In this document: piece after piece, positions 34,221 to 59,475 of the stretch
Layout: every line of letters starts with the position of its first letter
Numbering within the stretch: position 1 is the first letter of the stretch
Assembly: GCA_965242725.1 (NCBI GenBank)
Contig: CBDESZ010000006.1
Span: 64,001 to 128,000, forward strand
Reading direction: 5' to 3'
DNA length: 64,000 bases
From: Alkalispirochaeta sp.
GTDB taxonomy: Bacteria > Spirochaetota > Spirochaetia > DSM-27196 > Alkalispirochaetaceae
The notes under the pieces: generated by a model
The model's database searches: none
Told to the model about the DNA's origin: nothing
Seen by the model: only the letters and a program-made list of their open reading frames with translations
Translations under genes and position numbers: made by a program

Positions 34221-34244
34221 TGACGTAAAGCGTCATTATGACGC
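34221..34244. promoter_or_regulatory. candidate HigA operator in the cassette promoter
   Basis: Overlapping palindromes TGACG-N5-CGTCA and GCGTCAT-T-ATGACGC. Confidence 0.5.
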
Positions 34245-34307
34245 GAGAGCGTACCTTCGGTTTCTGCGTCAATCGCGTATTGCAATTTGGCTTCGCGTTC
34301 CGGAGTC

Positions 34308-34384
34308 ACATAACGACCGCATCACCTGCGCCCTCGCAGGAGCGAAGCGACGAGAAGGCGTCTGGTGAATGCGCGATGTTATGT
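34308..34384 (-). other. integron attC site, 62 bp upstream of the HUH transposase
   Basis: R'' ACATAAC, CATTCACC/GGTGATG with one extra base, GACGCC/GGCGC with extra A, spacer CGGTC, R' GTTATGT. Confidence 0.85.
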
Positions 34385-34446
34385 TGCGCACGGTGACCAC
34401 GCCCCCTATCTGAAGCAGGAAGCTCGCTACGCCCGTATGTGTTTAT

Positions 34447-35784
34447 GTGAGCACGGCAATCTCTGTCGCGACCGCGGTAAGGAATCAATACGTTCCCCGC
34501 GGCCGCAACGAGCTCCATACTATATTCGAGCGGCACTTCGGCGACTTCTGCGCCCAGTACGATGAGAAGTACGCCGCCACTTACGGCCGGTATCGCCTTG
34601 AGCGCATCCAGCAGATCGGGGAGCGGTTTTGCACCTGTGGCGACTATCTCCAGGGCGTCGCGCGGATACGCTGCACGAATCCCGAATGCGGACACGATTA
34701 CTTCCGACCGTTCTCCTGCAAGGGGTTTTATCTTTGTCCGTCCTGCAGTCGCAAACGAACCATCCTGTTCGCTGAACACCTGACAGACGAGGTCCTGCTC
34801 AAGCTGCCGCATCGGCAGTTCGTTTTCACGATGCCCAAAGCACTCCGGCCGTTCTTTCGCCACGATCGACGCTTGTTCGCCGAGGTGTCTCGCCTAATCT
34901 ACGACATCCTCCGTGATTTTTACCAAGAGGCCGCGGGCAGACCGCTGCTCACCGGCATGGTCATCGCGCACCAGACGTTTGGAGACATGCTCCGCTGGAA
35001 CCCTCATTTCCACGCCATCGTTTTGGAGGGCGGGTTTGATGATGAAGGTACGTTCTTCTACATCCCGTTCTCTGGGCTCCAGTCGATGGTCGAGGTATTC
35101 CGGCGTCGGGTGATCAAGCTGGTGGTGCAACGGGAGCTCCTGAACGATGACTTCGCTCGAAACCTTCTATCCTGGAGACACTCCGGTTTCAGTATCGACA
35201 ACAGCGTACGCATACTCGACGAGTCCTCCCAGGAAAGCCTGGCGGAGTACATAGCACGGCCGCCGATCTCGCTGAAGAAGATCCGCTACGAGCCGTTCAA
35301 AGGGAAGGTCCTATTTCACACCAAGTACTCGGAGTATTTCAAGCAGAACTTCCATCTGTTCGATGCCTTAGACTTTTTGGCCGAGTTAACGCAGCACATC
35401 CCGCCGAAACGTCTACAACTGATTCGGCGTTACGGGCTCTATGCCTCCCGCACAAAGGGACGGTGGGCACAGATGCCATGGGTTGTGGAACGAGCACCGG
35501 ACGGATGGAAGACCGACCATCAATGCGGTGATGTCGCAGATGATCCTGGCTACGAGCCATTGTCGGATGGGGATGAAGAGGTCGATATCAATGCGAGCAA
35601 ACGCGCCTGGGCCCGACTACTCGCGAAGGTCTATGAGGTCGATCCGATGGTCTGCCCAAAGTGCGGTGCGGACATGAAGGTGATCGCCGTCATCGAGGAT
35701 CCCGACGAACTGAAGCGTATCCTCCGACATCTGATCAAGATCGGGCGGTCCCCACCGGGATTCGATCCCGATCGCCTTAACTGA
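34447..35784 (+). CDS. IS91/ISCR-family rolling-circle HUH transposase
   Basis: Cys-rich Zn domain (FSCK...CPSC), PHRQFVFT, NPHFH HUH, single-Tyr EYIARP, IRRYG, C-terminal CPKCG. Confidence 0.92.
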   Translation: MSTAISVATAVRNQYVPRGRNELHTIFERHFGDFCAQYDEKYAATYGRYRLERIQQIGERFCTCGDYLQGVARIRCTNPECGHDYFRPFSCKGFYLCPSCSRKRTILFAEHLTDEVLLKLPHRQFVFTMPKALRPFFRHDRRLFAEVSRLIYDILRDFYQEAAGRPLLTGMVIAHQTFGDMLRWNPHFHAIVLEGGFDDEGTFFYIPFSGLQSMVEVFRRRVIKLVVQRELLNDDFARNLLSWRHSGFSIDNSVRILDESSQESLAEYIARPPISLKKIRYEPFKGKVLFHTKYSEYFKQNFHLFDALDFLAELTQHIPPKRLQLIRRYGLYASRTKGRWAQMPWVVERAPDGWKTDHQCGDVADDPGYEPLSDGDEEVDINASKRAWARLLAKVYEVDPMVCPKCGADMKVIAVIEDPDELKRILRHLIKIGRSPPGFDPDRLN

Positions 35785-36000
35785 CTGCTCTCTCGGCCTC
35801 GCGCCGTGGCATCCGTGTGTCCGTCTTACGCCCCAATCGTTTCCGTAACAGCCCTGATCTGTCCGTTTGGACGTTTGCGTACTCGAGTGGGCGGCAAGTG
35901 CGCCGCCGGCGCACGGCGAACCGCGATTCTCGTCGTGATTTCGTCGAGTCTTGCGCCTACCGCCCGTTTTCCGGTTGCGCTCGCGGATAACTCTTCCTAC

Positions 36001-36068
36001 TACTGGTGCTTCTCGAGTCGGAGGGCATGCGCCTCGAGGATGTCGTCGCCGAGCTCGCCTCGCGCTGA
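36001..36068 (+). pseudogene. 3' remnant of a hisE/hisIE-like gene
   Basis: Reads LVLLESEGMRLEDVVAELASR*, resembling the HisE C-terminus; starts at the TACT junction. Confidence 0.55.
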
Positions 36069-36161
36069 CCGACTGACCGGCCGTCATCGCGGCGGGCCTG
36101 TTGCGGACGACCTTCCGTCGGAACGGGCGACCCGGCGTACGGCGCGCGCCGTCCCCGGTCG

Positions 36162-37523
36162 TTACGGCGTGGCCGTCGGACCGGCAGGTTCGGCGTACTC
36201 CATCGGCCCCTCGTCGGGGTTGTACGAACTTTCGGCGTCCTGAACGGCGCCGGGCGGCAATGGAACGTCCCCCGCCAGGAGGGGGTCTCCGGTCCGACGC
36301 ATCCACGACTCCAGTCGTTCCTCCAGCGCAGCCCGTACCTCCGCGTACCCCGGGTCATCGGCGACGTTCACCCGCTCGAGGGGATCGATGTTGAGGTCGT
36401 AGAGCTGCACCGCGTCCAGGGGAAAATTCCTCACCCCCGCGTCGAAGAGGTGGTGCTTCGACGCGCTGCCGTCGATGTTGACGGGAACGAGGCGGGGCGG
36501 CGTGAGAAATCGCTTGATCAGCTTGTGGTCCCGGGTACGGATGGCGCGCTGTGGCTCGTACCGGGCGTGGTACGTCACTTCCGCGAACAGCTCGTCCCGG
36601 ATCTGATCGCGCTCACCCGTGAGGAGGGGAAGCAGGGAGCGACCCTCGAGGTTCGCCGGCGCGGGGATCCCCGTCAGTTCGCAGATCGTCGGAAAGATGT
36701 CGAGGTGCGAGACGAGGCCGTTGACGACCGATCCGCGGGCGGGGTTGCCGGGATAGTCGAGGATGAGGGCGACGCCGATGCCCGTATCGTAGAGGGTGCA
36801 CTTGTTGTAGGGGTACGCCACCCCGTGGTCCGTCGTGAAGATGATGATCGTCTGCTCCCGGAGCCCCGCGGCGTCCAGGGCGTCCAGCACGATGCGCACG
36901 CAGCGGTCGACGACGCGGGCGGAGGTGACAAAGCCGGCGTAATCCTCCCGCGCTTCGGGGGTGTCGGTGACCTCCCGGGGAGGCAGGAGGCGGTCAGGCT
37001 CGACCCCTTCCTCGACGGGGGGAAACTCCCGGTGCGTGTTGAACATACCGAAGGAGAGGAAGAAGGGGGAGTCGCTTTCACCCGCCTTCGTGAGGTACGC
37101 CGCGGCGCTCCGGGCGTTGGAGAGGTCGTACTCGACGGTGTCGAAGTCGTGGGCGTTGGCCATCGAAATCCCGAAGTCGTCGAGGACCTCGTCGTATCCG
37201 ATCGCGTCGACCGGCTCCGCCTCGTGCTGGATACCCGACAGGGCCGTTCGGTAGCCCGCGGCCGTGCAGTGGCGCACGAGATGCTCCTCGTAGTCGTAGA
37301 GCCGGAACCCCCGGTGAGCGAGGCCGAGCATTCCCGCGCGGTGGGGGCTCGTGCCGGTGAGGAGTCCCGCCCGACTGGGGGAGCACGTCGGGGCGGTGCT
37401 GTACGCCTGGCGGAAGAGGGTTCCCCGCCGGGCCAGCTCGGTGATTGCCGGGGTGCCGACGGCGTACCCGTAGGGGTCGAAGTACCGCCCGCTGTCGTGC
37501 GTGTGAAGGTAAAGAATGTTCAT
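36162..37523 (-). CDS. Cys-type sulfatase
   Basis: MNILYLHTHD, CSPSRAGLLTG, TTDHG, K.TLYD.G. Confidence 0.9.
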   Translation of the reverse strand: MNILYLHTHDSGRYFDPYGYAVGTPAITELARRGTLFRQAYSTAPTCSPSRAGLLTGTSPHRAGMLGLAHRGFRLYDYEEHLVRHCTAAGYRTALSGIQHEAEPVDAIGYDEVLDDFGISMANAHDFDTVEYDLSNARSAAAYLTKAGESDSPFFLSFGMFNTHREFPPVEEGVEPDRLLPPREVTDTPEAREDYAGFVTSARVVDRCVRIVLDALDAAGLREQTIIIFTTDHGVAYPYNKCTLYDTGIGVALILDYPGNPARGSVVNGLVSHLDIFPTICELTGIPAPANLEGRSLLPLLTGERDQIRDELFAEVTYHARYEPQRAIRTRDHKLIKRFLTPPRLVPVNIDGSASKHHLFDAGVRNFPLDAVQLYDLNIDPLERVNVADDPGYAEVRAALEERLESWMRRTGDPLLAGDVPLPPGAVQDAESSYNPDEGPMEYAEPAGPTATP

Positions 37524-37567
37524 CGTGTGTTGACCTTTCATGTGTGGTGTCACCGCGGTGCTCCACA

Positions 37568-38401
37568 TCAACCCTTGATGGCGCCGAGGGTGAGCCCCCG
37601 GACGATGTGGCGCTGCGCGTAGGTAACGAGGACAAACGCCGGCACCGCCGCGAAGAGGGACGCCGCCGCCATCTCTCCATACTCCGTCCGCCACTCCTGG
37701 ACAAATCCGGCGATGCCGATCGGAACGGTCATCCCGTTGGGGGTACTCGTGAGAACGAGGGCGAGGAGAAACTCTTTCCAGGAGAAGAGGAAGACGAGAA
37801 TCATCGCCGCCGAAATGGCGCCCTGGACGACCGGAAGGATCACCGCCCAGAGGGTCTGCAGCTCGGACGCGCCGTCGATCATCGCCGACTCCCGCAGTGC
37901 CGGGGGTACCGCGGCAAACCCGTCCTGGAGGATCCACAGCCCGAGAGGAATATTGAAGAGGGTGTGCGCTACGATTACCGCCGCCGGGGTGTCGTAGATC
38001 CCGACGGATCGGGCAAAGAGATACAGCGGCGCGGCGAAGATGATCGGCGGGAGGAGGTGGACGAGGAGCAGCCACAGGGTGACGACGCTCTTGGCCCCCG
38101 CACGCCAGCGAAACTGGGCGAGACTGTACGCGGCGGGACCGGCGATGAGCAGCACCAGGACCATCGTTCCGCTGGAGGAGATGACGCTGTTGATGGTCAG
38201 GCGCAGAAAGTCGCTGCGAACACCGTCGAAGAGGCGCTGATAGTTGATCAGCGTCGGCTCAAAGACAAAAGAACCGCTCATGATGTCCCGGGTAAACTTG
38301 AGGGACGTCGCTCCCGTGAAGAGCACCGGGACGACGAGGATTATCAGCCACAGTGAAACGATGGCAACGGTAAAGAATCGGGCACGTCGGGTTGAGTTCA
38401 T
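37568..38401 (-). CDS. carbohydrate ABC permease
   Basis: ESAMIDGAS loop, SWKEF. Confidence 0.9.
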   Translation of the reverse strand: MNSTRRARFFTVAIVSLWLIILVVPVLFTGATSLKFTRDIMSGSFVFEPTLINYQRLFDGVRSDFLRLTINSVISSSGTMVLVLLIAGPAAYSLAQFRWRAGAKSVVTLWLLLVHLLPPIIFAAPLYLFARSVGIYDTPAAVIVAHTLFNIPLGLWILQDGFAAVPPALRESAMIDGASELQTLWAVILPVVQGAISAAMILVFLFSWKEFLLALVLTSTPNGMTVPIGIAGFVQEWRTEYGEMAAASLFAAVPAFVLVTYAQRHIVRGLTLGAIKG

Positions 38402-38416
38402 GCTTCCTCCTCTGCC

Positions 38417-39292
38417 CTACTCGCGGTCGAGCCGCGCAAGAACAACGCGATAGACGATGATGATCGACAGGACGATTACCGACAGGAGGATTGTGAGAAA
38501 CGATCCGTAGCCGATGCGGTTCTGCACGAAGTACACCTTGTAGATGTACAGGTTGAGCACCTCCGTCGCCGTTCCCGGGCCACCGTTGGTGAGGAGGTAC
38601 ACCTGATCGAATACCTTGAACGCGAAGATCAATCGCAACATCAGTGCCGTGGCGATCGAAGGGCGAAGGAGTGGCAGAATCACGTGACGACGGATCTGGC
38701 GCGACGAAGCGCCATCGACCTGGGCAACCTCAAAGAGCTCGTGAGGGAGAGATTCGAGACCGGCGTAGACGATCAGAAAAACGAAGCTCGTCCAGTGCCA
38801 GATGTCGACGATGATGATCGTCAGCAGCGCGAGGTTGGGGTCCGCGTTCCACGTCGGACCCTGGACGCCGACGAGAGACAGAATCATGTTGAAGAGACCG
38901 AAGTTGTAGTCGTACATGAGCCGCCACATCGACCCGATGGCGATCGGCGGAATCAGGATCGGGAAGAGCAGGAGCGTCTTCGCGAGGACCGTCGTTTTGC
39001 GGAGGCTGCCGATCATCAGCGCCAGTGCCGTTCCCAGGATACCCTCGACGATGACGACCACCGCAACGTAGATGAAGGTGTTGCGCAGGGCGATTCCGAC
39101 GACCGGGTCGGCGATCGCGGTACGCGCGTGCTTGAGACCGACAAAGGTCCGGGTGACCTGCGATCCCGAGAATGAGACTTCGGAGACACCCATCTGGACG
39201 AGCTGGATGATGGCGTAGGTCGAGAAGACCATGAGGAAAAGAAAAAGCGGCACCATGGCCCGATACTTGAACGGCATCGATATCTGCTGCAT
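38417..39292 (-). CDS. carbohydrate ABC permease
   Basis: EVAQVDGAS, LTNGGPG. Confidence 0.9.
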   Translation of the reverse strand: MQQISMPFKYRAMVPLFLFLMVFSTYAIIQLVQMGVSEVSFSGSQVTRTFVGLKHARTAIADPVVGIALRNTFIYVAVVVIVEGILGTALALMIGSLRKTTVLAKTLLLFPILIPPIAIGSMWRLMYDYNFGLFNMILSLVGVQGPTWNADPNLALLTIIIVDIWHWTSFVFLIVYAGLESLPHELFEVAQVDGASSRQIRRHVILPLLRPSIATALMLRLIFAFKVFDQVYLLTNGGPGTATEVLNLYIYKVYFVQNRIGYGSFLTILLSVIVLSIIIVYRVVLARLDRE

Positions 39293-39392
39293 GGACGGTC
39301 CTTTGTTTCGTCGAAGATTTCGTCGAAATGGCGCGGAAGAGGGCCTGTGCTCTCTTCCGCGCCGGGATGGGTCAGTTCTCGGAGCGGAGAGT

Positions 39393-40721
39393 CTACTCGA
39401 CGATCACCGCATTGTAACCGGCACCGTCGAGGACGGCGAAGATCTCTTCGGCGGCGTTCTGCATCGCTTCTGCCGGTGACTCCTGGCCGATCACGGCGTA
39501 GCCGATCTGCCGCTTGATGATGTCGTTGATCTGGGCACTCTCGGGGATCCGCAGCTGGGGCGAGATGTACGGGGTGGATGCGGCAAACCCTTCCATCCAC
39601 CATCCGATTTCGGGGTCACTCGAGAGGGTGTCGTAGGTGTCCTGTCGCACCGGGATCGCTCCCGCCTGGGTGTACGCGATCTGGTTTTCCGCCGTGAGGA
39701 GATAGTCAAGAAAGTCCACGGCGGCCTGTTTGCGGTCGTCCGGAATATTGTGGGGCACTCCCATCGTCCAGATGCCGGTCATCGTGGTGCGGGAGTCCGC
39801 CGTCCGGCCCGGGACGGGCACGGCGCGGATCTGGCCGGCGACGATCGACTCTTCCTCATTGTCAAAGGCGGGGGCTGCCGCGCCAACGACGATCGCCTGG
39901 GCGAGACGTCCGCTCTGCAAGAGTCCCATGAGCTGGGCCTGACCGATGTCGGCGAAGTTCGCCGGTCCGTACTCGGCGGTCATGTCGAGCAGGTACTCGA
40001 GGGCTTCGATCGACTCGGAGCTTCCGATCAGTACTTCCCAGACGCCGCTGTCGGCGTTGTAGATCACGTAGCCACCACCGAAGCTCTCGAAGACGGCGTT
40101 GGTTTCCCACTCCGGCGGGTTGGTGCGCCAGGCAAATCCGAGAACGTCATCACTGCTCACCGCTTCGGCGATCGCACGGACCTCGTCCCAGGTGGTGGGC
40201 GGATCGAGTCCCGCCTCTTCGAGGAGATCGGCGCGGTAGAAGAAGAGCTGGATGTTTCCATTGACCGGAACGGCGTACATCGTGCCGTCCGGAGAGGCCA
40301 CGCCCGTCTCGGGGTCCCAGAACGCGGCGTTACCATAGTCGATGACGTTCTCGTCCAGGGTGAAGGATGGTCTGATCTCGGTGATCGGCGTCAGCCAGTC
40401 GTTGGCGTAAAACTCGAGCATCCACTGCTCGTTGAGGTTGATCAGGTCAAACTCGCTCTCACCCGCGGTAACGGCGTTGCGCGACTTCGGAAGCATCGCC
40501 GGAAAGGGGTTGACGTCGAGACGCACCGGATTGCCCGTCTCCTCGATGTACTTCTCGACGATCGCCTCGAAGCCGGGCAACCACGGGGACGTGTTGATCA
40601 GAATCGAGATCTCCGGATTGGTCCCCTCCGGGGCATCTCCTTCCGGTTGGCCGCCGGCCATCGCGAGACCCGTTATCAGGGTCAGGGCAACCAGGGTGGC
40701 AAAAAAGCAACGTATACGCAT
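39393..40721 (-). CDS. carbohydrate ABC substrate-binding protein
   Basis: Signal ending MAGGQPE, FYRADLLEEAG, PTTWDE. Confidence 0.88.
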   Translation of the reverse strand: MRIRCFFATLVALTLITGLAMAGGQPEGDAPEGTNPEISILINTSPWLPGFEAIVEKYIEETGNPVRLDVNPFPAMLPKSRNAVTAGESEFDLINLNEQWMLEFYANDWLTPITEIRPSFTLDENVIDYGNAAFWDPETGVASPDGTMYAVPVNGNIQLFFYRADLLEEAGLDPPTTWDEVRAIAEAVSSDDVLGFAWRTNPPEWETNAVFESFGGGYVIYNADSGVWEVLIGSSESIEALEYLLDMTAEYGPANFADIGQAQLMGLLQSGRLAQAIVVGAAAPAFDNEEESIVAGQIRAVPVPGRTADSRTTMTGIWTMGVPHNIPDDRKQAAVDFLDYLLTAENQIAYTQAGAIPVRQDTYDTLSSDPEIGWWMEGFAASTPYISPQLRIPESAQINDIIKRQIGYAVIGQESPAEAMQNAAEEIFAVLDGAGYNAVIVE

Positions 40722-40867
40722 TACCGTATCCTCCTTGTAGATCGTGGCCGATAAATTCGGTCGTCTTCAGTGTCGAACGAGAATCCGGTTATGTCAACCT
40801 GTTTCTTTACCGGTTGCTATACGTGTATCGAAACCGTTGACAGCAGAGATTGCGCCTCGTACAGTAG

Positions 40868-42079
40868 ATGGCGGGGAGACGCGTGAAAACGAATCAGCAC
40901 GAGGTCCGAGTGGCCAACACCAGAAAGATACTCGATCTCCTGCGCCAACAACCGGCTCTCACCGTGCGGGAGTTGTCGACGGAGACGCGGCTCAGCCGAC
41001 CGACGGTGGCCAAGATTCTCGCGCTCCTCACCGGGGCAGGGGTCGTCAGCGATCGGGAGACGGGAGAGTCGACCCTCGAGGGCGGCAAGCCTCCGCGACT
41101 CTTCTCCCTCAACGCCGAGGGAGGGCACCTCATCGGAATCCACTACTCGGGCAACCACTTCTTCGGCAGCCTCGTCGATCTCCAGCTTCGTGTCATGACC
41201 TCCGTCGCCCAACCCGTGCCGGCGGAGATTCGGGCCAGCGAGCTCGTCGATCTGCTGGACCAGATGGTTCGGGGGCTGTTGGTCAGTTCCGATGTCACCG
41301 GGGGGCGCTGCCTCGGCATCGGGATCGGCACGCCCGGTGTCACCGACCTCGGGCTTGGCGAAGTGGTCTTCTCCCCGCACCATCCCGGCATCGGCGAGCA
41401 CCTCGCCCTGCGGGACCTCCTGGCGGAGCGTCTCGAGTACATCGCACCCGTCTTCGTCGACAATTCGATCCGGTTTCGCACGATCGCCGAGCAAACGATG
41501 GGCCACCTCCGGGGCGTGCGGGACGGAGCGGTGATCTACTGTGACGACGGCCTCATTTCGGGACTGCTCCTGGACGGGCAGATCCGGCGGGGCCCCAACA
41601 GTCTGGCCGGCTCGATCGGACACATGACGATCAACCCCGGCGATCCGGTACAGTGTGCCTGCGGCGGATACGGCTGCTGGGAGATGCAGGTTTCTCCGGA
41701 CCGGCTCGTCGCCGAGATGCGCGCCCGCCTCACACGGCGTTCCCCGAAGGATTCTCCCGGTGAGGAACTGACGGTTGCGACGGTACTCGATCGCGCCGAC
41801 GAGGGTGATCCCGACGCGGTAGAGCTCATCGAAGGCGTCGCCCACTGGTTTGCCGTGGGAATCCACAACATGATTCTCGCCTACGATCCCGAGACGATCG
41901 TCATCCAGGGGGTCTACGCAAGACCCGACAGCCACTTCTTTCGATCCCTGACGGCGCAGATTACCGACGTTTCTCTCGTTCGGGCACCCTTTCAGACCCG
42001 GGTGGTCTGTTCGTCCCTCGGAAAGGACGCCGCCAATATCGGCGCGGCGTCCTACTCCCTGTCCATGGCGCTGGCGTGA
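40868..42079 (+). CDS. ROK-family transcriptional regulator
   Basis: N-terminal HTH, GGKPP, GIGIGTPG, IGHM....CACG..GCWE. Confidence 0.9.
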   Translation: MAGRRVKTNQHEVRVANTRKILDLLRQQPALTVRELSTETRLSRPTVAKILALLTGAGVVSDRETGESTLEGGKPPRLFSLNAEGGHLIGIHYSGNHFFGSLVDLQLRVMTSVAQPVPAEIRASELVDLLDQMVRGLLVSSDVTGGRCLGIGIGTPGVTDLGLGEVVFSPHHPGIGEHLALRDLLAERLEYIAPVFVDNSIRFRTIAEQTMGHLRGVRDGAVIYCDDGLISGLLLDGQIRRGPNSLAGSIGHMTINPGDPVQCACGGYGCWEMQVSPDRLVAEMRARLTRRSPKDSPGEELTVATVLDRADEGDPDAVELIEGVAHWFAVGIHNMILAYDPETIVIQGVYARPDSHFFRSLTAQITDVSLVRAPFQTRVVCSSLGKDAANIGAASYSLSMALA

Positions 42080-42096
42080 CGAGGGGTGCCCATTGT

Positions 42097-42243
42097 GCCA
42101 CGTCGCCGGGCGCGCGGATTGATGGACTGGTGGCCGATCATGGCGAGACGGTCGTCGCTACGCCGCCGGGCGCGTGGGTTTATGGACTGGTGGCCGATCA
42201 TGGCGAGACGGTCGTCGCCACGTCGCGGGGCGTGTGGATTGAT
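42097..42243. repeat. 60-bp tandem repeat, about 2.5 copies
   Basis: Units start at 42097, 42157, 42217; core ATGGACTGGTGGCCGATCATGGCGAGACGGTCGTCGC. Confidence 0.85.
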
Positions 42244-42256
42244 CGGGTACCCGCGG

Positions 42257-42628
42257 TCAGTACAGCCGGCCACCCTCGGGCACCGGCGCATCCGGCGCGA
42301 TGAGAACGACGGCACCCGTCTCATCGGGAACCCCGAGGGTCAGACACTCCGACTTGAAGCCGGCGACGCGCTTGGGCGGCAAATTGGTGACCGCCAGGAC
42401 CTGACGGCCCGCGAGCTCGTCGGGGGTGTAGCGATCGGTGAGCTGCGCGCTCGACCAGCGGACGTCACCGCCGCCGAAGTCGATGCGCAGTTTGATCGCC
42501 GGAACCCGCGCTTCCGGGAAGGGGATCGCTTCCCGGACGGTGCCCACCCGGATCTCTACCTGACCGAATGCGTCCCACACGGAGGGAGCCGGTGATTCCC
42601 CGTCGATGGCAGGCGTCGCCCCGGTCAT
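42257..42628 (-). CDS. csaA: tRNA-binding protein / export chaperone
   Basis: EIRVGTV, SSAQLT, NLPPKRVAGFKSECLTLG; start uncertain. Confidence 0.85.
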   Translation of the reverse strand: MTGATPAIDGESPAPSVWDAFGQVEIRVGTVREAIPFPEARVPAIKLRIDFGGGDVRWSSAQLTDRYTPDELAGRQVLAVTNLPPKRVAGFKSECLTLGVPDETGAVVLIAPDAPVPEGGRLY

Positions 42629-42677
42629 CCCGGCGTGGCGCGGATCGCCACCCCTCGGGTTCGACGTACCCATCCGA

Positions 42678-43814
<1,137 letters not shown>

Positions 43815-43879
43815 TTACGGGAAGACCGCCCGGACCGACGGGTCCCCGTCACGGAAGTCCTCGCGCGGGAAGTCCGTCC

Positions 43880-44563
43880 TCAGGGGAAGACCGTCCGGAG
43901 CTCCATCAGGACCACCTCCTCACTGCGATACCCTCCCCAGATCGTGAGGACGCTCTCTTCCGGCGTCTCGCCGGAGATGTAGTAGCCCTTGAGAAGGCCG
44001 AGGTTGTCCAGGAGCATGTCCTCAAACTCGTTGTAGCTGCCGGCGCGACGGTTTCGGACGATTGAGTCACCCGTCAGGGTTCCTTCCTCGAAAGTGAGGC
44101 TCTCCCGGGGCGAGGCGGTGTCGATGCGAAAGGTGTAGGAGCCCTCGATGGTGTTCTGCGGACCACGGACGTGGATCGGACCGCTCCCGCTCGTGTTGCC
44201 GGGGTCGTGGGTCGCGCTCGGGCGGAGTTCGATCCAGACGTCCCGGGTCGGGGGAACGAGTCGGCGCATATCTCCGTAGAGGCGGACGAGCTCCCACCGC
44301 GTCTCCACCAGGGGCGCGTGACCGAGGGGCGCCGGCTCCTCCGGTTGCGGCAGGGGTTCCGCCGGCAGCTCCGGCGGGATCGGCTCCGGTGGAGGTGCGG
44401 GAAGGGCAATCGGGGGCGCGACCGGGGGCGCGGGTATCCCAAAGGGGAGGGGCTCCGGGTCGCCGGCACAACCGGCGAGGAGGATCATCGCACCGATCAC
44501 GATCGCTCCCGCCAGAGTGCTCCGGGCACCGGGGGGCATCCGGCGCGAACTGCGTCTCTTCAT
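43880..44563 (-). CDS. Pro-rich lipoprotein, possibly META domain
   Basis: Lipobox LAGC, Pro linker, LVETRWELV. Confidence 0.6.
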   Translation of the reverse strand: MKRRSSRRMPPGARSTLAGAIVIGAMILLAGCAGDPEPLPFGIPAPPVAPPIALPAPPPEPIPPELPAEPLPQPEEPAPLGHAPLVETRWELVRLYGDMRRLVPPTRDVWIELRPSATHDPGNTSGSGPIHVRGPQNTIEGSYTFRIDTASPRESLTFEEGTLTGDSIVRNRRAGSYNEFEDMLLDNLGLLKGYYISGETPEESVLTIWGGYRSEEVVLMELRTVFP

Positions 44564-44642
44564 GGTGTCAGTATCGGCTGCGGGGGGACGCGTCCTGACA
44601 CGCGGCGCCGTATCCGGCTACACTCGGCGCCAGGAGGTGTAG

Positions 44643-44912
44643 ATGCGCGCTGTGTGCACCGTCGTAGGATACGACAAACCGGGGATCATCGCGGCGGTGA
44701 GTACCGCGTTCGCCGAACGGTCCGTCAACATTCTCGATATCAGCCAGACGATCATGCAGGGGTTCTTCACGATGATCACGCTGGTCGACCTCGCGGGGAT
44801 GTCGATTTCCCTGGACGAACTTCGTCAGGACCTCGCCGAGCTCGGCGAACGCATCCAGGTGCAGATAACCCTGCAACACGAGGACGTCTACACTGCGATG
44901 CACCGGGTGTGA
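44643..44912 (+). CDS. ACT domain protein (UPF0237-like)
   Basis: TVVGYDKPGII, NILDISQT, MHRV. Confidence 0.88.
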   Translation: MRAVCTVVGYDKPGIIAAVSTAFAERSVNILDISQTIMQGFFTMITLVDLAGMSISLDELRQDLAELGERIQVQITLQHEDVYTAMHRV

Positions 44913-44927
44913 GCGGGGAGTGAGCCG

Positions 44928-46340
44928 ATGTTTCTGACACCGACCGAGATCGAAGAGACGTTGCGCATGTTTGCCCAGGAAAACCTGGACGTGCGAACGA
45001 TCACGATGGGAATCAATCTTCTCGACTGCATCGACAGTGATCCGCGCCGCGCCGCCGGACGGATCTACGAGAAGATCACCCGCGTCGCCTCCCGGCTCAC
45101 CACAGTGGGAGACCAGATCGAGGCTGAGCTCGGGGTACCGATCATCAACAAGCGGATCGCCGTCACGCCGATCGCGATGATCGTCGGGGCGAGTATGGCC
45201 GCCGGCGGACGCGCGTCAGGCGCCCGGGGCGCGGGATCCGCCGGGACCGGGGATGGACCTCTCTATTTCGCCGAGACGCTGGAGCGCGCAGCCCAGGAGG
45301 TTGGCGTCGATTTTCTCGGCGGCTTTTCCGCCCTTGTGCACCGGGGGATCACCCCCGCCGAGGAGCGGGTGATCCGCGCCATCCCGGCGGCGCTCGCCGC
45401 CACCGAGAAGGTGTGCGCCTCCCTCAACGTAGCCACCTCTCGGGGCGGGATCAATATGGACGCGGTCCAGCTTGCTGCGGCGGCGATCAAGGAGTCGGCC
45501 GACCGCACCCGCGACCGCGGTGGATTCGGGGCGAGCCGTCTCGTCATTTTTGCCAACGCGCCGGAGGACAATCCCTTCATGGCGGGCGCCTTCCACGGAC
45601 CCGGCAACCCTGACACGGTGGTACACGTCGGCGTCAGCGGCCCTGGAGTCGTGCAGAGCGCCATTCGCCAGTACCCCGACGCGCCCCTCGACGTTCTCGC
45701 CGAGGTGATCAAGAAGACCTCCTTCAAAATCACCCGTCTCGGTCAGCTCGTCCTCGACCTCGCCGCCGAGCGCCTCGGGGTGGAGCGGGGAATCGTCGAC
45801 CTCTCCCTCGCTCCGACCCCCGCCGTCGGTGACAGCGTCGCCCGCATCCTCGAGGAGATGGGCCTCGAGATGGCCGGCGCTCCCGGCTCGACTGCGGCGT
45901 TGGCGCTCCTCAACAACGCCGTCAAGAAGGGCGGCCTGATGGCGAGCTCCCGCGTCGGCGGCCTGAGCGGCAGCTTCCTTCCGGTGAGCGAGGACGAGGC
46001 GATGGCGCGCGCGGCGGAGTGTGGCGTTCTCACCCTCGAGAAGCTCGAGGCGATGACGGCGATCTGCTCGGTCGGACTCGACATGATCGCCGTGCCCGGG
46101 GACACCTCGGTGGATACCCTCTCGGGGATCATCGCCGACGAGATGGCGATCGGCGTGATGAACCACAAGACGACGGCGGTCCGCATCATTCCCGTTCCGG
46201 GCAAAGGGCCCGGCGAGTGGGTCGAGTTTGGCGGCCTCCTCGGGCGGGCACCGATCATGCGCGTCAACGGCGCCTCCTGCACCGGGTTTGTGCGCCGGGG
46301 TGGCCTGATCCCCGCGCCGGTCACCGGATATCGCAACTGA
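44928..46340 (+). CDS. UPF0210/DUF711-family protein
   Basis: [34 protein letters not shown]. Confidence 0.88.
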
Positions 46341-46354
46341 GAAAGGACCCGACC

Positions 46355-47083
46355 ATGCCACAACGGAAGTACCGACACGTTCTGCTCGACGCGGACAACA
46401 CGATTCTCGACTTTGCCGTCTGCGAACGCCGCATTCTCGAGACGATGGCCCGGGAGTTCGGGTTTATGCCGCGCACCCGCAGCGGTGAGGACCTGACCGC
46501 CGCGTATCGCCGGATCAACGCCTCCCTCTGGCGCGACCTCGAAGAGGGATCGATCGGCCCGGAGGAGCTCAAGATCGAGCGGTTTCGGCGGCTCATCGAG
46601 CACCTCGATTTCACGGCGATCTCCCGGCCGCTGGAGCCGGAATTCCTCAATATGCAGTTCATCATGCGCCTGACGGGGTGCGCCGAGCTCGTCCCGACGG
46701 CGAAAGCAGTGGTCCCCTCGATCGCGCCGGTATCGATCATCACCAACGGCTTTGCCGACGTGCAGCGGCCGCGCCTCGCCGCAAGCGGGCTCGCAGAGTA
46801 CATCGACCACACCTTCATCTCCGAGGAGATCGGTGCCGCGAAGCCCCAGGCGGCGTATTTCGACCACGTTCTGACCGCTCTCGGCAACCCCGATCCGCGG
46901 GAGTGCGTTGTCGTGGGTGACTCTCTCTCCTCCGACATCGCCGGCGGCATCGCTGCGGGAATGGACACGGTCTGGTTTGATCGCAGCGAGATGCTCGGAG
47001 AGAAGCGGGTCACTCCTTCACCCGACCGCACACCGACCCACCGAATCACGCGATTGGTCCAATTGCGCGATATTATCTGGTGA
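46355..47083 (+). CDS. YjjG-like HAD nucleotidase
   Basis: DADNTILDF, ITNG, AKP, GDSLSSDI.GG. Confidence 0.85.
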   Translation: MPQRKYRHVLLDADNTILDFAVCERRILETMAREFGFMPRTRSGEDLTAAYRRINASLWRDLEEGSIGPEELKIERFRRLIEHLDFTAISRPLEPEFLNMQFIMRLTGCAELVPTAKAVVPSIAPVSIITNGFADVQRPRLAASGLAEYIDHTFISEEIGAAKPQAAYFDHVLTALGNPDPRECVVVGDSLSSDIAGGIAAGMDTVWFDRSEMLGEKRVTPSPDRTPTHRITRLVQLRDIIW

Positions 47084-47116
47084 AGAGAGTCGCCGCGGCC
47101 GGCCATCGCGCGCCGG

Positions 47117-47220
47117 GGCGACTCAAGCCGGGTCGCCGTCGGAGGCACGTGCACACCGAGGCGACTCAAGCCGGGTAGTTGACGGCCATTGCCCGGCCGG
47201 GCGGCTCAAGCCGGGGAGCC
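47117..47220. repeat. three REP-like 21-bp units
   Basis: GGCG(A/G)CTCAAGCCGGG at 47117, 47160, 47200. Confidence 0.7.
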
Positions 47221-47252
47221 GGCGGCCGATATAGGAAGTCAAGGAGATAGCT

Positions 47253-48020
47253 GTGCGCACGTTGACCCTCCTCTTTCTGATCGTACTCGTGCCGGCGGCG
47301 CTGATCGCTCAGGCGCCGTCATCGGATGCGGTCGAGACGGGGGAGATCCCGGAAGAGTTTGAGGAGATGGTCCGGGACCTCGTCGATCGCTACGAGGAAC
47401 TGCGGCTGCTCCTGCGAGAGGAAATGGCGAAGAACGCCAACCTCTACAGCCAGGCCGAGATCGACGCGGCGGTCTCCGAGGTGGAAGATCGCCTCGGCGC
47501 CGAACTCGCGGCGGCAAACGAGCGGATTGATCTCCTCGAGGCGCAGCGCGACGCGCTCGCCGGCGCTCTTCGTCTCGCCGAAGCGGAGTTTATGATGCAC
47601 CAGGGCGGCGGCTCCCAGACCGCGTCGGAGCTCGCCGCGGAAGTCGCCTCCCTCGAGGAGACAATCGCCTCGATCGAGGAGGAGTCCCTCTTTCAGGTCG
47701 GTGCGACCTTCTCCCCCGCGGGCACCCTCGGCGCCATCGGTATCGTCAATCTACCCCAGACAAACGTGAGTCTCCTCGCCGGTACCAACTACTTCCTGCG
47801 GGACAAGGAGTTCAACCTGATGCTCGGCGTGACCTTGAGCTTCCTGCCGGCGCGGGAGATCTCCGACCGGTTTGCCCGGCGGGGCGAAAGAGATTCCGAC
47901 GAGCCGTCCGACGGCGGTCGATCGGCGGATAACGGCGCGGACGATCTGCCCGCCGAGTCGGCCGATGCGGCCTCCAACGCGCCCGAAAGCTCGGACGAAT
48001 CGCCGGCTGAAGCGGAGTAG
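47253..48020 (+). CDS. exported coiled-coil hypothetical protein
   Basis: AGGAG RBS, signal peptide, helical repeats, acidic tail. Confidence 0.65.
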   Translation: MRTLTLLFLIVLVPAALIAQAPSSDAVETGEIPEEFEEMVRDLVDRYEELRLLLREEMAKNANLYSQAEIDAAVSEVEDRLGAELAAANERIDLLEAQRDALAGALRLAEAEFMMHQGGGSQTASELAAEVASLEETIASIEEESLFQVGATFSPAGTLGAIGIVNLPQTNVSLLAGTNYFLRDKEFNLMLGVTLSFLPAREISDRFARRGERDSDEPSDGGRSADNGADDLPAESADAASNAPESSDESPAEAE

Positions 48021-48101
48021 CGCGCGCCACTTCGGGCGTGCAAACGTTCCCCCTGCTGTGGTACAATGCCGCCACAATCAGCGATGGGAGGAACAATTCG
48101 C

Positions 48102-50072
48102 ATGGATAACAAGGCCGTTGAAGCCGTAGCACTCTCGGTACGTACCCTGACAATCGACGCCGTACAGGCGGCAAACTCCGGACACCCCGGCATGCCGATG
48201 GGCATGGCCGAGCTCGGCGCACTCCTCTACGGGGAGGTTCTCAAGCACGACCCCGCCGACCCGAAATGGCCCGACCGCGACCGTTTCGTGCTCTCCGCCG
48301 GCCACGGTTCGATGTTTCTCTACAGCCTGCTCCACCTCTCCGGCTACAATCTCCCGCTGGACGAGCTCAAGCGCTTTCGTCAGGTCGGGAGCATCACCCC
48401 GGGGCACCCCGAGTACGGGATGACCGACGGTATCGAGACGACCACCGGACCCCTCGGACAGGGACTCGCCAACGCCGTCGGTATGGCAATCGCCGAACGG
48501 ATGCTCGCCGCGCGGTTCAACACCGCCGACCACACGATCGTTGACCACTATACCTACGCCATCTCCGGCGACGGCTGTCTCATGGAGGGCATCACCTCCG
48601 AGGCGAGCTCCCTCGCGGGCCACCTCGGCCTGGGCAAGCTGATCGTCTTCTACGACAACAACAGCATCTCCATCGAAGGTTCCACCGAGCTCGCCTTTAC
48701 CGAAGACGTGGCGGCGCGCTATCGCGCCTACGGCTGGCAGGTACTCGAGGGCGACGCCTACGACCCCGACGGTATCCGCAAGATGGTGGCGGAAGCGAAG
48801 AAGGACGCGTCGCGACCGGCGATCATCATGCTCAAATCGGTGATCGGCCAGGGATCGCCCAACAAGAAGGGAACTCACGACGTTCACGGAGCGGCCCTCG
48901 GGGACGACGAGGTCGCCCTCACCAAGAAGCAGCTCGGCGTCGATCCCGCAGAGATGTTTTACATCGCTCCCGCCGCGACGGAGTTCTTTGCGGCGTACCG
49001 CGCGGAGCTTGCCGGGAAGCACGCGGCGTGGAAGAAGACTTTCGACGCCTGGGGCGCCGCCAATCCGGGGCTCCTCGCCCAGTGGAAAGAGGCGGTCGAG
49101 GGCGGTTACAAGGCGGTTCTCAAGGACATCGGGATGCCCACCTACAAAGTGGGTGACAAGGTCCCGACGCGCAAGGCGAGCGGTTCGGCGCTGCAGGCGG
49201 CGGCCCGGATGCTTCCCAACCTCGTCGGCGGCTCCGCGGACCTCGCTCCCTCCAACAACACGGCGATGCCCGAATACGGCGACTTCACGAAGGCCGACCC
49301 GAGCGGTCGCACCCTCCATTTCGGCGTGCGCGAGCTCGGCATGGCGGCGATCGGCAACGGCATGGCCCTCCACGGCGGTCTCCGGCCCTTCGTGGCGACC
49401 TTTCTCGTTTTTACCGACTACCTGCGCCCGGCGCTGCGCCTCTCGGCGCTGATGCAGATTCCGCTGATCTACGTGATGACCCATGACTCGATCTTCGTCG
49501 GTGAAGACGGACCGACCCACCAGCCGATTGAACACGTCGCCGTCCTGCGGGCGATCCCCGGAGCGCGGGTGCTGCGTCCCGCCGACGCGGAGGAAACCAA
49601 CGAGGCGTGGCTCATGGCCCTCGAGCACGACGGCCCCACGGTACTCGCCCTCACACGGCAGGGACTCCCGGTCCTCGAGAAGGCCGACGCCGACTGGAAA
49701 GAATCGATGCGCCGCGGCGCCTACGTCGTCAGTGACGTTGCCTCCCCGGAGGTTGTCGTCGTTGCGACGGGGAGTGAAGTCTCCCTCGCCCAGGAAGCGG
49801 TCGCCAGGAGCGGCCGGAAGGCGCGGATCGTCTCGATGCCGAGCCGGGAGCTCTTTGAGGCGCAGGACGCGGCGTGGCGGGAGAAGATCCTGCCGGCGGG
49901 AGTTCCCGCCGTCGTCGCCGAGGCGGGTATCCGCCAGGGCTGGGAAGGTATCGCTCCCCGGGAGCGGATCCTCTCGATCGATCGCTTCGGCGAGAGTGGC
50001 CCCGGCGATGCCGTCGCACAGCACCTCGGCTTTACCGCCGACGCCCTCGCGGCGCTGATCAAGAACGCCTGA
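48102..50072 (+). CDS. tkt: transketolase
   Basis: [33 protein letters not shown]. Confidence 0.97.
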
Positions 50073-50085
50073 CCGGAGGAACCCT

Positions 50086-51630
50086 ATGGCACGCTACGCC
50101 CTTGGCTACGATGTGGGGAGCTCGTCGATCAAGGCGAGCCTCGTCGATCTCGATTCGGGAAAACGGGTCGCGTCGGCGGGGGCTCCCGAGACGGAAATGC
50201 CGATCAGTGCACCCCGGCCTGACTGGGCGGAGCAGGACCCGGCGATGTGGTGGCGCTACGTCGTCGAGGCGACGCGGAAGCTGGGGCAGGCGGCGGACCT
50301 GAGTGGCGTCGCCTCGATCGGCATCTCCTACCAGATGCACGGGCTCGTTGCCATCGATCGCGACGGCGAGCCCCTGCGCCCCTCGATCATCTGGTGCGAC
50401 AGCCGCGCCGTCTCGTACGGTGAAGAGGCGTTCAACACCCTCGGCGGTGCTGCGAAGGTGCTGCCGCGGCTTCTCAACTCCCCGGGCAACTTTACCGCCG
50501 CCAAACTGGCGTGGGTCAAGGCCAACGAGCCGGACGTCTACGGCCGCATCTGGAAGATCATGCTCCCCGGAGACTACATCGGGTACTGCCTCACCGGCGA
50601 CGTTGTGACGACCGCGGGGGGGCTCTCGGAGGGCATCTTCTGGGATTTTCAGCAGGACGAACCTGCCGGTTTCTTGATGGACCATTTCGGGTTTGACCGT
50701 GAGCTCATACCCCCGGTGATGGAGGGGTTTGGCGACCACGGCCGGGTGACCTCCGCCGTCGCGGCGGAGCTCGGCCTGCCCGCGGGGACCCCCGTCGCGT
50801 ACCGCGCCGGGGACCAACCCAACAACGCCCTCAGTCTCAACGTCCTCAACCCCGGTGAGGTCGCAGCGACGGCGGGCACCTCCGGCGTCATCTACGGCGT
50901 CGTGGACCGCCCGGCGTGGGACGAGAAGAGCCGGGTCAACACCTTCCTCCACGTCAACCACCGTGCCGACCAGTCCCGGTACGGGGTGCTCCAGGTGCTC
51001 AACGGCACGGGCATCCTCAACCGCTGGGTCCGGGAGGTGAGCCTCGATCCGGTAGCCGGCGGGGCCGCTGGGGCCGGAAGCGCGCCCGGCGGGGCGCCCG
51101 CCTCGTACGAGGCGCTCAACGCGCTCGCGGCGGAGGCGCCGATCGGGAGCGCCGGGCTGGTGATGCTCCCCTTCGGGAACGGCGCGGAGCGCATCCTCGA
51201 AAACGTCAACTACGGCGCGAGTATGCACGGCCTCAACTTCAACATCCACGGTCGGAGTCACCTGCTCCGCGCCGCCCAGGAGGGCATCGTCTTTGCCCTC
51301 GGGTTCGGCCTGGAGATCATGCGTGGAATCGGCCTCACCGTTGATACCGTCCGCGCCGGCCACGCCAACATGTTTCTCAGCCCCCTCTTCCGGCGTGCGT
51401 TCGCGACCGTCACCGGGGCGACAGTCGAGCTCTTCAACACCGACGGGAGCGAGGGTGCCGCGCGGGGTGGTGCCTACGGTGCAGGGCTCTTCTCAAGTCT
51501 CGAGGAAGCGTTCAGCGGCCTCGACCTCCGGGAGCGGATCGAGCCCGACCGGAGCGTCGCCGGGGAGTACGCCGAGGCGTTCCAGCAGTGGAAGGACCGC
51601 CTGGCTCGGGTGACCGCCGCCGGCGTGTGA
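50086..51630 (+). CDS. xylB: FGGY-family sugar kinase, probably xylulokinase
   Basis: GYDVGSSSIK, YQMHGLV, IIWCDSR, AGDQ. Confidence 0.8.
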   Translation: MARYALGYDVGSSSIKASLVDLDSGKRVASAGAPETEMPISAPRPDWAEQDPAMWWRYVVEATRKLGQAADLSGVASIGISYQMHGLVAIDRDGEPLRPSIIWCDSRAVSYGEEAFNTLGGAAKVLPRLLNSPGNFTAAKLAWVKANEPDVYGRIWKIMLPGDYIGYCLTGDVVTTAGGLSEGIFWDFQQDEPAGFLMDHFGFDRELIPPVMEGFGDHGRVTSAVAAELGLPAGTPVAYRAGDQPNNALSLNVLNPGEVAATAGTSGVIYGVVDRPAWDEKSRVNTFLHVNHRADQSRYGVLQVLNGTGILNRWVREVSLDPVAGGAAGAGSAPGGAPASYEALNALAAEAPIGSAGLVMLPFGNGAERILENVNYGASMHGLNFNIHGRSHLLRAAQEGIVFALGFGLEIMRGIGLTVDTVRAGHANMFLSPLFRRAFATVTGATVELFNTDGSEGAARGGAYGAGLFSSLEEAFSGLDLRERIEPDRSVAGEYAEAFQQWKDRLARVTAAGV

Positions 51631-51647
51631 CACGATAGCAACCCGCG

Positions 51648-52306
51648 ATGCTGATCGGCCCGGACTCTCCCCTTACCCTCCCGGCGCTCGCGCGAATCGC
51701 GGCGGTGCCGGAGGCGATCCATTTCAGCGCGGCGTCGCGGGAGCGCGTCGCCTCCGCGGCGGCGTTTCTCGAACGGCTCGTCGCCGATCGCCGCGTCGTC
51801 TACGGCATTACCACCGGCTTCGGGCCGCTGGCGGGGACGTGGATCGACCCGTCCCGGTCTGAGGAGCTGCAAACCTACCTGCTGGCTCATTTGCGGTCCG
51901 GGGTCGGGCCACCCCTGCCGCGCGAGGCGGTGCGGGCGATGATGGTGGCGCGCCTGGCGAGTCTCTCCCGGGGTCACTCGGGCATTCGGATGGAAACCCT
52001 GGAGCTTCTCGCCGCCATGGTCGAACGGGACGTTACGCCGGTTGTTCCGTCGATGGGGACCGTCGGTGCCAGCGGGGATCTCACGCCTCTCGCGCATATG
52101 GCAGCGACGCTGCAGGGGGAGGGAGAGGTTCTGGTCGAGGGTGTGGCACTTCCCGCCGGGGAGGGGCTTCGCCGTGTCGGGCTGGAGCCGGTCGTCTTTG
52201 GCCCGAAGGAGGCGATCGCCCTGGTCAACGGCACCTCGACCATGACCGCCATCGCCGCGCTCAACGGGGAGGCGGCGGAACGACAGCTCAACCTCGCCGT
52301 CGCCCT
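51648..52306 (+). pseudogene. aromatic amino acid (His/Tyr/Phe) ammonia-lyase, 3'-truncated by the element
   Basis: VYGITTGFG, MIO motif GASGDL, KEAIALVNGT; runs into element sequence at TACT 52307. Confidence 0.88.
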
Positions 52307-52640
52307 TACTTCTGAAATCAGTAGTTCATATTTAATATTATCTTCAATATAATTGATTGCCATATTCATTCTTTCAGACCATTCCATTATCATGCTTCCT
52401 TGTTATGCATAGTAATAAATTTTAATTCTATGATCTCACCTTTTTATGCGATGCGATGTGTGTTTATACATTTCCAAACTGGCACGGATGCCAGTTTGCC
52501 TATATATAATCCCTTCTCCCAAAAAAGGGCGGGGTAATTGCATCTAACGTCCTGCGAATAGCCGAAGTTACCAAGGCATTCACCTGTCAACAATGTCCTT
52601 AGCTTTCTGTAAACCATCTCCATGATCAGTACCTGTGTCC

Positions 52641-52739
52641 ACATAACGATGAGTTGAGTTGTTTGGCGTTAATCGGCGCGGTTGTTGCAGAAGCAAGAAC
52701 CGTGACGATAGCCAAATCAACTCGAACGTGGTGTTATGT
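52641..52739 (-). other. attC site (copy of 30857-30955)
   Basis: Same sequence at offset 21784. Confidence 0.85.
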
Positions 52740-52751
52740 GACTCAGGTTTT

Positions 52752-54014: not shown

Positions 54015-54043
54015 TTTCGTACAAAAGAATCGAAGCAAGAGCG

Positions 54044-54346
54044 CTAATTCGTCTTGGCGAGTACTCGCGGGATCTTTCTCAAGTCTTCTTTCAGCCGTTC
54101 CTTTTCATCGCGAAGATCATACTCATCCTGGATACCCATCCAGAACTCCGCCGAGTTTCCAAAATACGCCGATAATCGAAGCGCGGTGTCCGCAGTAATA
54201 CGCCGATTACCTTTTAGGATCTGCGATATTCGAGTCGCCGGCATCCGGGTGTCCTGGGCAAGTCGGTACGCACTGATTCCCATCGGCTCGAGGAATTCTT
54301 CTTTCAATATTTCTCCGGGAGTAACATTGGGAATTTCGTCCATCAC
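54044..54346 (-). CDS. higA: HigA antitoxin
   Basis: Identical to 32260-32562. Confidence 0.92.
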   Translation of the reverse strand: MMDEIPNVTPGEILKEEFLEPMGISAYRLAQDTRMPATRISQILKGNRRITADTALRLSAYFGNSAEFWMGIQDEYDLRDEKERLKEDLRKIPRVLAKTN

Positions 54347-54352
54347 ATCCTC

Positions 54353-59472: not shown

Positions 59473-59475
59473 GGC

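Follow-up and report, generated by a model that had tools for sequence, protein, structure and literature searches.

How a stretch of core-type DNA came to lie between two identical copies of a transposable unit is the question raised by the locus described here. The window, i.e. the whole stretch of DNA analyzed, comprises 64,000 nucleotides from Alkalispirochaeta sp. (assembly GCA_965242725.1, contig CBDESZ010000006.1, positions 64,001 to 128,000). We refer to the source assembly as G000 and to the contig as C6, so that the window is G000:C6:64001-128000, and to a relative that carries the same genomic island as G003. The unit ends in an IS91-type element, and the DNA between its two copies, hereafter the block, carries genes such as leuB, tkt and xylB. 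Among the models that we weighed, rolling-circle capture is the best: in two one-ended rounds, followed by integration at a resident copy, the element would have brought in 16.3 kb of core DNA from a third congener, an account that we regard as reasonably probable.

The block and the units that flank it

The block spans positions 36001-52306 (16,306 bp) and has a GC content of 65.8%, versus 55.2% in 1-30522 and 54.4% in 56444-63060, in agreement with a preliminary description of this DNA that had called it GC-richer than the island on both sides. The mean for G000 is 57.7 +/- 3.1% (5-kb windows). The same description had placed two element copies around the block, and this was borne out: the units at 30523-36000 and 52307-56443 lie in direct orientation and differ at 0 of 4,137 positions, after setting aside an ISL3-family insertion sequence (IS; 32795-34127) and 8 T of duplicated target. 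TACT stands at the start of each copy and directly after each copy. The units and their flanks contain the following features:

29809-30609, minus strand: AraC-family gene (Pfam HTH_18/HTH_AraC), intact across 30523 and 100% identical in G003:C1; native left flank of the resident unit
30523-36000, plus strand: copy 1, made of an araC 5' piece, an attC-like site, an IS3, a higBA cassette, an attC-like site and the IS91-type core, with ISL3 inside
32795-34127, plus strand: ISL3-family IS in the T-run of higB, in copy 1 only; a second ISL3 lies at G000:C6:4895-6233
34308-34384, minus strand: attC-like hairpin bordering IS core 1 on its left, with its cores located; the identical site of copy 2 folds with z = -3.0
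34447-35784, plus strand: IS91-type HUH transposase of copy 1, 445 aa (PF04986 and PF14319)
35900-36000, plus strand: ori end of copy 1, ending in TTCCTAC, an end conserved in other genomes
52307-56443, plus strand: copy 2 (4,137 bp), starting with the araC-derived TACT
52641-52739, minus strand: attC-like hairpin of copy 2, folding with z = -5.1
52752-54012, minus strand: IS3-family element within the unit, absent at this point in G003:C53
54044-54635, minus strand: higBA toxin-antitoxin cassette, with higB out of frame at a homopolymer
54751-56443, plus strand: IS core of copy 2, with an attC-like site (54751-54827), the transposase (54890-56227) and the ori end; no terIS recognised
56444-57131, minus strand: target TACT of the resident insertion, followed by what a 3,654-bp deletion has left of lnt, its 5' part (comparison with G003:C42)
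63440-63512, minus strand: tRNA-Met, beyond which the DNA is 99% identical to G003:C2, marking the true host of the contig

The transposase matches Y2_Tnp (PF04986, E 6e-22) and a zinc-binding domain (PF14319, E 5e-13), and the ori region folds with z = -2.4. Regarding the left edge, relatives in the order (54 of 99 genomes with some match) align from around 54750 (54750-54775) to 56445. Since they align up to the attC-like hairpin and then diverge, the IS core measures 1.69 kb and has no recognisable terIS, while the remaining 2.44 kb of the unit are cassette-array DNA. The left flank of the core differs among genomes at the TAAC core of this hairpin, as would be expected at a cassette boundary. 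We called attC-like sites from their cores and folding. Of 17 loci, several of which are truncated or start inside the gene, 5 have one upstream of the transposase according to a strict TAAC..GTTA pattern, and blastn placed it in further loci. At the ends that were used (30523/52307 and 36001), folding was no better than in shuffled sequences. In G008, from another clade of the genus, the IS core is present at 99.9% identity with a different cassette at its left (L078, G008:C197:4855-5737), so that the element crosses species. Carriers of the ori end are mostly labelled as Spirochaeta or Spirochaetaceae metagenome-assembled genomes; the ori pattern gave 0 matches in viral contigs. The higB homopolymer, which is also the run targeted by ISL3 in copy 1, has 9 T in the window (54570-54580) and 7 T in G003 (L070:4270-4300), out of frame by eye in both, and is possibly a slippery switch or a sequencing error.

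The block contains the following features:

36001-36068, plus strand: left end, TACT plus the last 22 codons of hisIE, a surrogate terminator or target; in frame and matching the C-terminus of G003 HisIE
36162-42079, both strands: sulfatase, two ABC permeases and solute-binding protein (minus), ROK regulator (plus); an intact module not found in G003
42257-44563, minus strand: csaA-like gene, leuB and a putative lipoprotein gene, syntenic with G003:C5
44643-51630, plus strand: 89-aa open reading frame (ORF), DUF711, HAD hydrolase, hypothetical, tkt and xylB, syntenic with G003:C5
51648-52306, plus strand: right end, the 5' 220 codons of an aromatic amino acid ammonia-lyase gene whose full-length relatives have 521-597 aa

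The domain scan and gene names uphold the leuB, tkt, xylB, csaA-like and sulfatase/ABC genes listed by the preliminary description, with CsaA as a tRNA-binding protein, LeuB as a leuB-type dehydrogenase and XylB as an FGGY kinase (xylulokinase in JGI naming) next to transketolase. Its start at a TACT in a hisE-like tail was also found as described (36001-36004). The 89-aa ORF presumably encodes an ACT domain. The sulfatase, which has no match in G003 (94% complete), is probably the useful cargo, and the intact sulfatase/ABC/ROK module the likely gain; the solute-binding-protein search in G003 ran without a positive control. Intergenic tandem repeats occur at 42097-42237 (60 bp, 2+ units) and 47089-47214 (around 43 bp, 3 units).

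Host of the contig and origin of the block

The 13 kb beyond tRNA-Met are 99% identical to G003:C2, the top match among 22 family genomes, where the next-best long matches reach 69-73%. The same 13 kb duplicate G000's own C18 locus at 65-74%. The flank as a whole is 98-99% identical to G003 and its hisC-like gene 97.9% (nucleotides), and in a protein collection four of four post-tRNA proteins cluster with G003-type proteins found on 14-23 contigs. The island is also in G003: C6:13.8-94.9 kb matches G003:C1 at 99-100%, and the transposase 3' end, ori, lnt and cadA region matches G003:C42 at 100%. Given the post-tRNA identity and the shared island, C6 appears to be a contig of the G003 species that was mis-binned into G000, and it adds second copies of leuB, tkt, the hisC-like gene and tRNA-Met to that genome. 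We found no further long stretch from the host species in G000. Two island proteins occur on 21 and 25 contigs of the protein collection, and the host species commonly carries the island. In G003 it has no block, and the araC left flank and the ori|TACT-TG right flank are as in the window, so that G003 would represent the pre-capture state.

The right flank calls for a correction. The preliminary description spoke of a resident copy next to lnt and of a 3' part of lnt to be sought elsewhere. The resident copy was not inserted in lnt: in G003, ori|TACT-TG is followed by another gene, which we take to be a PEP-protein phosphotransferase gene, and then by two intact lnt genes. The window misses 3,654 bp relative to G003:C42 to the right of ori 2, with a TG microhomology at the edges. 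By this comparison, lnt was truncated by the deletion and not by the insertion.

As to the block itself, synteny had been suggested earlier as a check. G003 has a single leuB and a single tkt, both on C5, where the genes run hisA-hisIE-(other gene)-csaA-leuB-lipoprotein-DUF711-HAD-hypothetical-tkt-xylB. The block shows the same order, apart from the sulfatase module that follows hisIE and the lyase that follows xylB, with nucleotide identities of 67-81% per gene and protein identities of 88% (LeuB), 83% (Tkt) and 79% (XylB). Trees of tkt, leuB and hisC, built without G005, the partial G010 tkt rows and three distant paralogues, group G003 with the G004/G013 clade in three out of three cases; G003 is thus coherent, and we discarded the idea that it is a mixture. 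The block forms a separate branch, with no settled placement in the tkt tree and weakly sister to G003 in the leuB tree. The low identity to the syntenic locus and the separate branch argue that a third congener, and not the host, was the donor of the block, which is core-type DNA and rare in this context. Its leuB, tkt and xylB would then be second, divergent copies in the host.

The search for a donor in 41 relatives (17 of the genus, G000 included) gave none above 81% among the matches listed. Scanning metagenome contigs for the lyase returned 28 loci, all 33-54% identical, and no donor DNA; in 22 family genomes, 11 of the 21 others have a homologue, at just 37-46%. Closer relatives came from metagenomes and the protein collection. 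Exact matches exist for five of eight block proteins, each on one or two contigs, and the other full-length members of their clusters are 90-99.8% identical. Identities to metagenome proteins in the clusters are 93-99.8%. These relatives include one set on a 4,799,750-bp contig and another on a 16,814-bp contig, co-location being read from equal contig sizes. A separate 16,485-bp ENA contig carries 100%-identical block proteins, and full-length lyase relatives in metagenomes are 98, 95, 90, 89, 86 and 79% identical. The resemblance once noted between the block and the DNA beyond the tRNA holds for GC content and fails at the sequence level: the post-tRNA DNA is 99% G003-type, and its tetranucleotide distance to non-homologous stretches of G003 (11-22) is below that to the block (23).

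One could argue that the block represents the leuB-tkt locus of the host strain itself, relocated by a rearrangement between dispersed copies whose reciprocal junctions lie outside the bin. The rest of the host chromosome is indeed outside G000, where the native locus is unseen, and the GC content is similar to that of the host. However, this strain is 98-99% identical to G003 beside the tRNA, and the relocation would need a 20-30% divergence plus a difference in gene content precisely here. Besides, G003-type XylB occurs on 17 contigs, with a 99.6% variant on a 212-kb contig. We therefore consider relocation highly improbable. We did seek a second block, the 5' part of hisIE and the 3' part of the lyase in G000, as had been recommended, and met 70-78% orthologues (C14, C15 and C34) and a 50% HisIE (C34). 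This outcome is uninformative: C6 being mis-binned, a search for reciprocal junctions inside G000 cannot decide anything.

Junctions and the route to the unit-block-unit structure

In other genomes the ori end is followed by TATT in ten cases out of ten, and in the window by TACT. Two of the loci give two tandem ends each. A tandem duplication of the ori end is seen in L057 (G011:C55) and L062 (G070:C107), with the repeats 27 and 44 bp apart and TATT after each, as if the element had re-inserted at its own target. In the window, both read-through ends start exactly at TACT. TAYT is so sparse, with 29 occurrences in the 16,306-bp block and 19 in 2,444 bp of the unit, that a chance coincidence of both ends with TACT seems unlikely.

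The lyase junction is of another kind. The preliminary description had the block end at a TACT inside the lyase gene, and this did not hold: the TACT at 52307 belongs to the element, whose left end it forms, and it is derived from araC and also present at 30523. All eight full-length lyase relatives (79-98%) read A-L/E-L-G-L-L-Y-A-E across 52306. Since the native bases that follow would be NGGN, the insertion into the lyase probably took place either at a non-consensus site or with loss of 5-10 bp. A microhomology at this junction (CCT with ori or with hisIE) was tried and rejected, the predicted letters not being those observed.

To address the joins themselves, for which long reads and depth had been proposed as checks, we compared 34900-54500 with contigs from four runs out of the 17 listed, leaving aside X3-X10, whose shares are 0.05-0.22, and X13-X17. 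X11 and X12, from one sample, are probably the source. In both, error-free pieces of up to 6-9 kb cover the block at a depth of 3-6, which suggests accurate long reads behind them. A 6,177-nt piece present in both runs starts at 35975, 26 nt inside ori 1, and continues unbroken into the block, and neither run offers an alternative entry or branch from an intact hisIE. At the lyase junction (52307), a 4,195-nt contig makes the bridge in X11, and X12 branches. In X1, from another study, a relative of around 96% identity stops matching at 52306 and goes on with 1,142 unlike letters. The truncated lyase with its element-derived tail is found on two contigs of the protein collection. As for depth, the transposase part of the element is at around twice the block in X11, and the element at only 1.1-1.4x in X12. 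To judge from the assembled sequence, the unit-block-unit structure is real.

One could ask whether the junctions are real and the assembler misthreaded through the repeat, the block residing in a third species of the sample or on a free 20.4-kb circle and the island being single-copy. Short-word contigs cannot phase 4.1 kb, in the G000 bin C6 is mis-binned and one join on C4 is suspect, the block apparently stayed a separate piece in another assembly (the 16,485-bp ENA contig), and block proteins occur on 1-2 contigs versus 21-25 for island proteins. On the other side, X11 and X12 contain no intact hisIE or lyase path, their 6-9-kb error-free contigs suggest reads able to span the repeat, a circle with no replicon would not persist, and even so the block would be joined to the element at both ends. 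Altogether, we deem a phasing artefact quite unlikely.

The layout, araC-unit-ori|TACT-hisIE...lyase|TACT-unit-ori|TACT, fits a two-round rolling-circle capture. The starting point is a terIS-less core with an attC-like site at its left, within a unit reaching the araC TACT. In a first step, the unit would be replicated from ori as far as the araC TACT, and the copy would be inserted in the lyase gene of foreign DNA, either imprecisely or at a non-consensus site; this foreign DNA either had entered the host cell or was met when the element visited the donor. A second round would run from that copy's ori through the unit and 16.3 kb to the hisIE TACT, producing a closed 20,443-bp circle with ori joined to TACT-hisIE. 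Homologous recombination between this circle and the resident copy, over 4.1 kb, or insertion of the circle at the TACT beside the resident ori would in either case give unit-block-unit. Finally, ISL3 would jump into one copy. From the ISCR1-like two-step model advanced in the preliminary description we keep the layout, together with the pre-capture island of G003, and abandon the host as donor, the canonical lyase target and the cut of lnt by insertion.

IS91-family transposition starts at oriIS, fails at terIS in 1-14% of events, uses tetranucleotide targets and has circular intermediates, according to the sections on it in PMC13181058; IS801 is reported to end at target-like tetranucleotides (in part of PMC3189936), and a circle-plus-recombination model exists for ISCR1 (the Toleman model, as outlined in parts of PMC13023784 and PMC3575428).

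Several observations weigh against capture. It needs read-through of 19 plus 28 TAYT words, the native lyase bases after 52306 would be NGGN and not TAYT in 8/8 relatives (as deduced from protein sequence only), and words that might resemble TAYT would come 5 or 10 bases later at the earliest. Among the contigs, those joining ori and hisIE hold 26-30 letters to the left of the junction and the X12 lyase contig holds 30 to its right, below a bridging rule of 31 letters; the compared stretch ends before 56443; X11 lacks the araC branch that the assembly predicts at 52307; the doubled depth in X11 concerns the transposase part only; and these contigs cannot phase the repeat. No donor scar or circle was seen. 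By eye in the ORF list of C6, which lacks the left end of the island, we recognised no relaxase, coupling protein, type IV secretion genes, attL/attR or transfer vehicle. The mobilisation of neighbouring DNA by ISCR1 is itself described, in a passage of PMC7782503, as lacking experimental validation. Moreover, the joins in the G000 assembly are not beyond doubt, because the end of C4 looks alphaproteobacterial. This end (G000:C4, ~343,000-430,194; L013, L214), near a tRNA-Leu, comprises around 80 kb at 65-72% GC, matches none of 21 family genomes at E 1e-30 and encodes an FtsH nearest to alphaproteobacterial plasmid genes (60-63%). Past ~343-350 kb it is probably a chimeric join or a very foreign island, and these same data exclude it as donor or as part of G003.

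Two other routes could lead to the same structure. Homology-facilitated illegitimate recombination would combine one canonical insertion at the hisIE TACT with a homologous left join and an illegitimate join in the lyase. This would account for the fact that only the hisIE junction is canonical, and also for the 3,654-bp microhomology deletion beside ori 2. However, the chance of such a join falling exactly on TAYT is around 0.8% (19/2,444 positions), and joins of this type usually delete, rather than duplicate, recipient DNA; we find this route very unlikely. In the second, the unit would have inserted twice, independently, in the donor (at the hisIE TACT and in the lyase), with RecA-type excision of a unit-block circle and recombination into the island copy. 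Read-through of the block is then not needed, ori|TACT-hisIE looks alike as a target or as a circle junction, and 4.1-kb direct repeats are good recombination substrates; IS801 pieces have been argued, in part of PMC3189936, to act often as homology regions. Such a route requires that the same 4.1-kb extended unit inserted twice within 16 kb, in one orientation and with hisIE cut in one of the two events, it explains the non-consensus lyase junction no better, and X11 shows no second predecessor at 52307. We regard it as unlikely, and as the foremost of the alternatives to rolling-circle capture.

Known capture systems and integron cassettes

Capture at this locus seems to work like that of ISCR1 and ISCR28, without being a class 1 complex integron. 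As in ISCR1 complex class 1 integrons, described in parts of PMC13023784 and PMC3575428, a terIS-less HUH element is fused at its left to integron DNA, and non-cassette chromosomal DNA is trapped between ori and a duplicated left flank. Unlike them, there is no class 1 integron or resistance gene, the left flank consists of a chromosomal cassette array, core genes of a congener make up the 16.3-kb cargo and the target is TAYT. Among the unit ORFs we found neither the 3'-CS (qacEdelta1-sul1) nor the ISCR1 transposase, and the transposase is less than 60% identical to anything in a plasmid collection (best 40-42%).

One-ended transposition of IS91, IS1294 and IS801, in the accounts given in parts of PMC13181058 and PMC3189936, shares the start at ori, the end at a target-like tetranucleotide, the absence of target duplication and the carriage of upstream DNA. 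In the same accounts, the cleaved-strand targets are CTTG/GTTC/GTCC, versus AGTA/AATA here, those elements have a terIS, and the reported IS801 experiments carried 0.3-1.4 kb, compared with 16.3 kb at this locus. ISCR28 and ISCR20, in the pertinent part of PMC12772301, resemble the unit in having attC at the element edge and, for ISCR28, a 'sandwich' of cargo between two ori-bearing copies; cargo and host differ, and the likeness is one of layout (attC adjacency). Mobilised chromosomal fragments such as sul2-glmM' also keep synteny with their chromosomal origin, have broken end genes and lie near IS91/ISCR elements, as stated in parts of PMC6335563 and PMC7782503; the present fragment is much longer, with no apparent antibiotic selection and with donor and recipient in one genus.

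If the capture reading is right, this would be an unusually large natural instance of a gene-capture route known from antibiotic-resistance elements, here outside antibiotic resistance and in an uncultured spirochaete-type genus. It stands out for its size, for being very recent (0 differences between copies), for the pre-capture strain G003 in hand and for its location between two attC-like sites. In the literature searched, where subscription journals are thinly covered, we found no report of this element, of IS91 capture in Spirochaeta or of 'cassette genesis' so named. It would mean that core genes amounting to 16 kb can pass between species that differ by 20-30% in sequence and reside there as second copies, which can mislead marker-gene trees and estimates of bin quality.

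The attC-like hairpins at 34308 and 52641 have one orientation and bracket an 18,333-bp segment holding the block, formally a new giant cassette if both sites are functional. This attC-bounded layout provides a testable link to the origin of integron cassettes. An attC-capped rolling-circle element might act as a cassette factory for core DNA, making an 18.3-kb cassette of housekeeping and sugar-sulfatase genes that the host IntI could excise and move; we think this rather unlikely. If true, it would be a concrete route to the birth of cassettes, and one open between sister species too divergent (20-30%) for ordinary homologous exchange. The portion of a preprint that deals with the matter (bioRxiv 10.1101/2025.11.28.691237) treats ISCR recruitment as separate from cassette formation. 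In G000, no integron integrase (TIGR02249) exceeded the cut-off; in G003, one did, on C42, beside the far end of the same island segment.

The cadA-lnt-IS segment adjoins this intI locus in G003, and a cassette and tRNA-Met locus in the window (62715-63063; G003:C42, C53 and C2). Both loci share an attI-like start, which suggests integrase-driven shuffling of large segments between two array heads. Elsewhere on the island, a small gene is duplicated over 659 bp at 97.6% identity (3384-4041 and 12866-13523), and the same duplication is found in G003.

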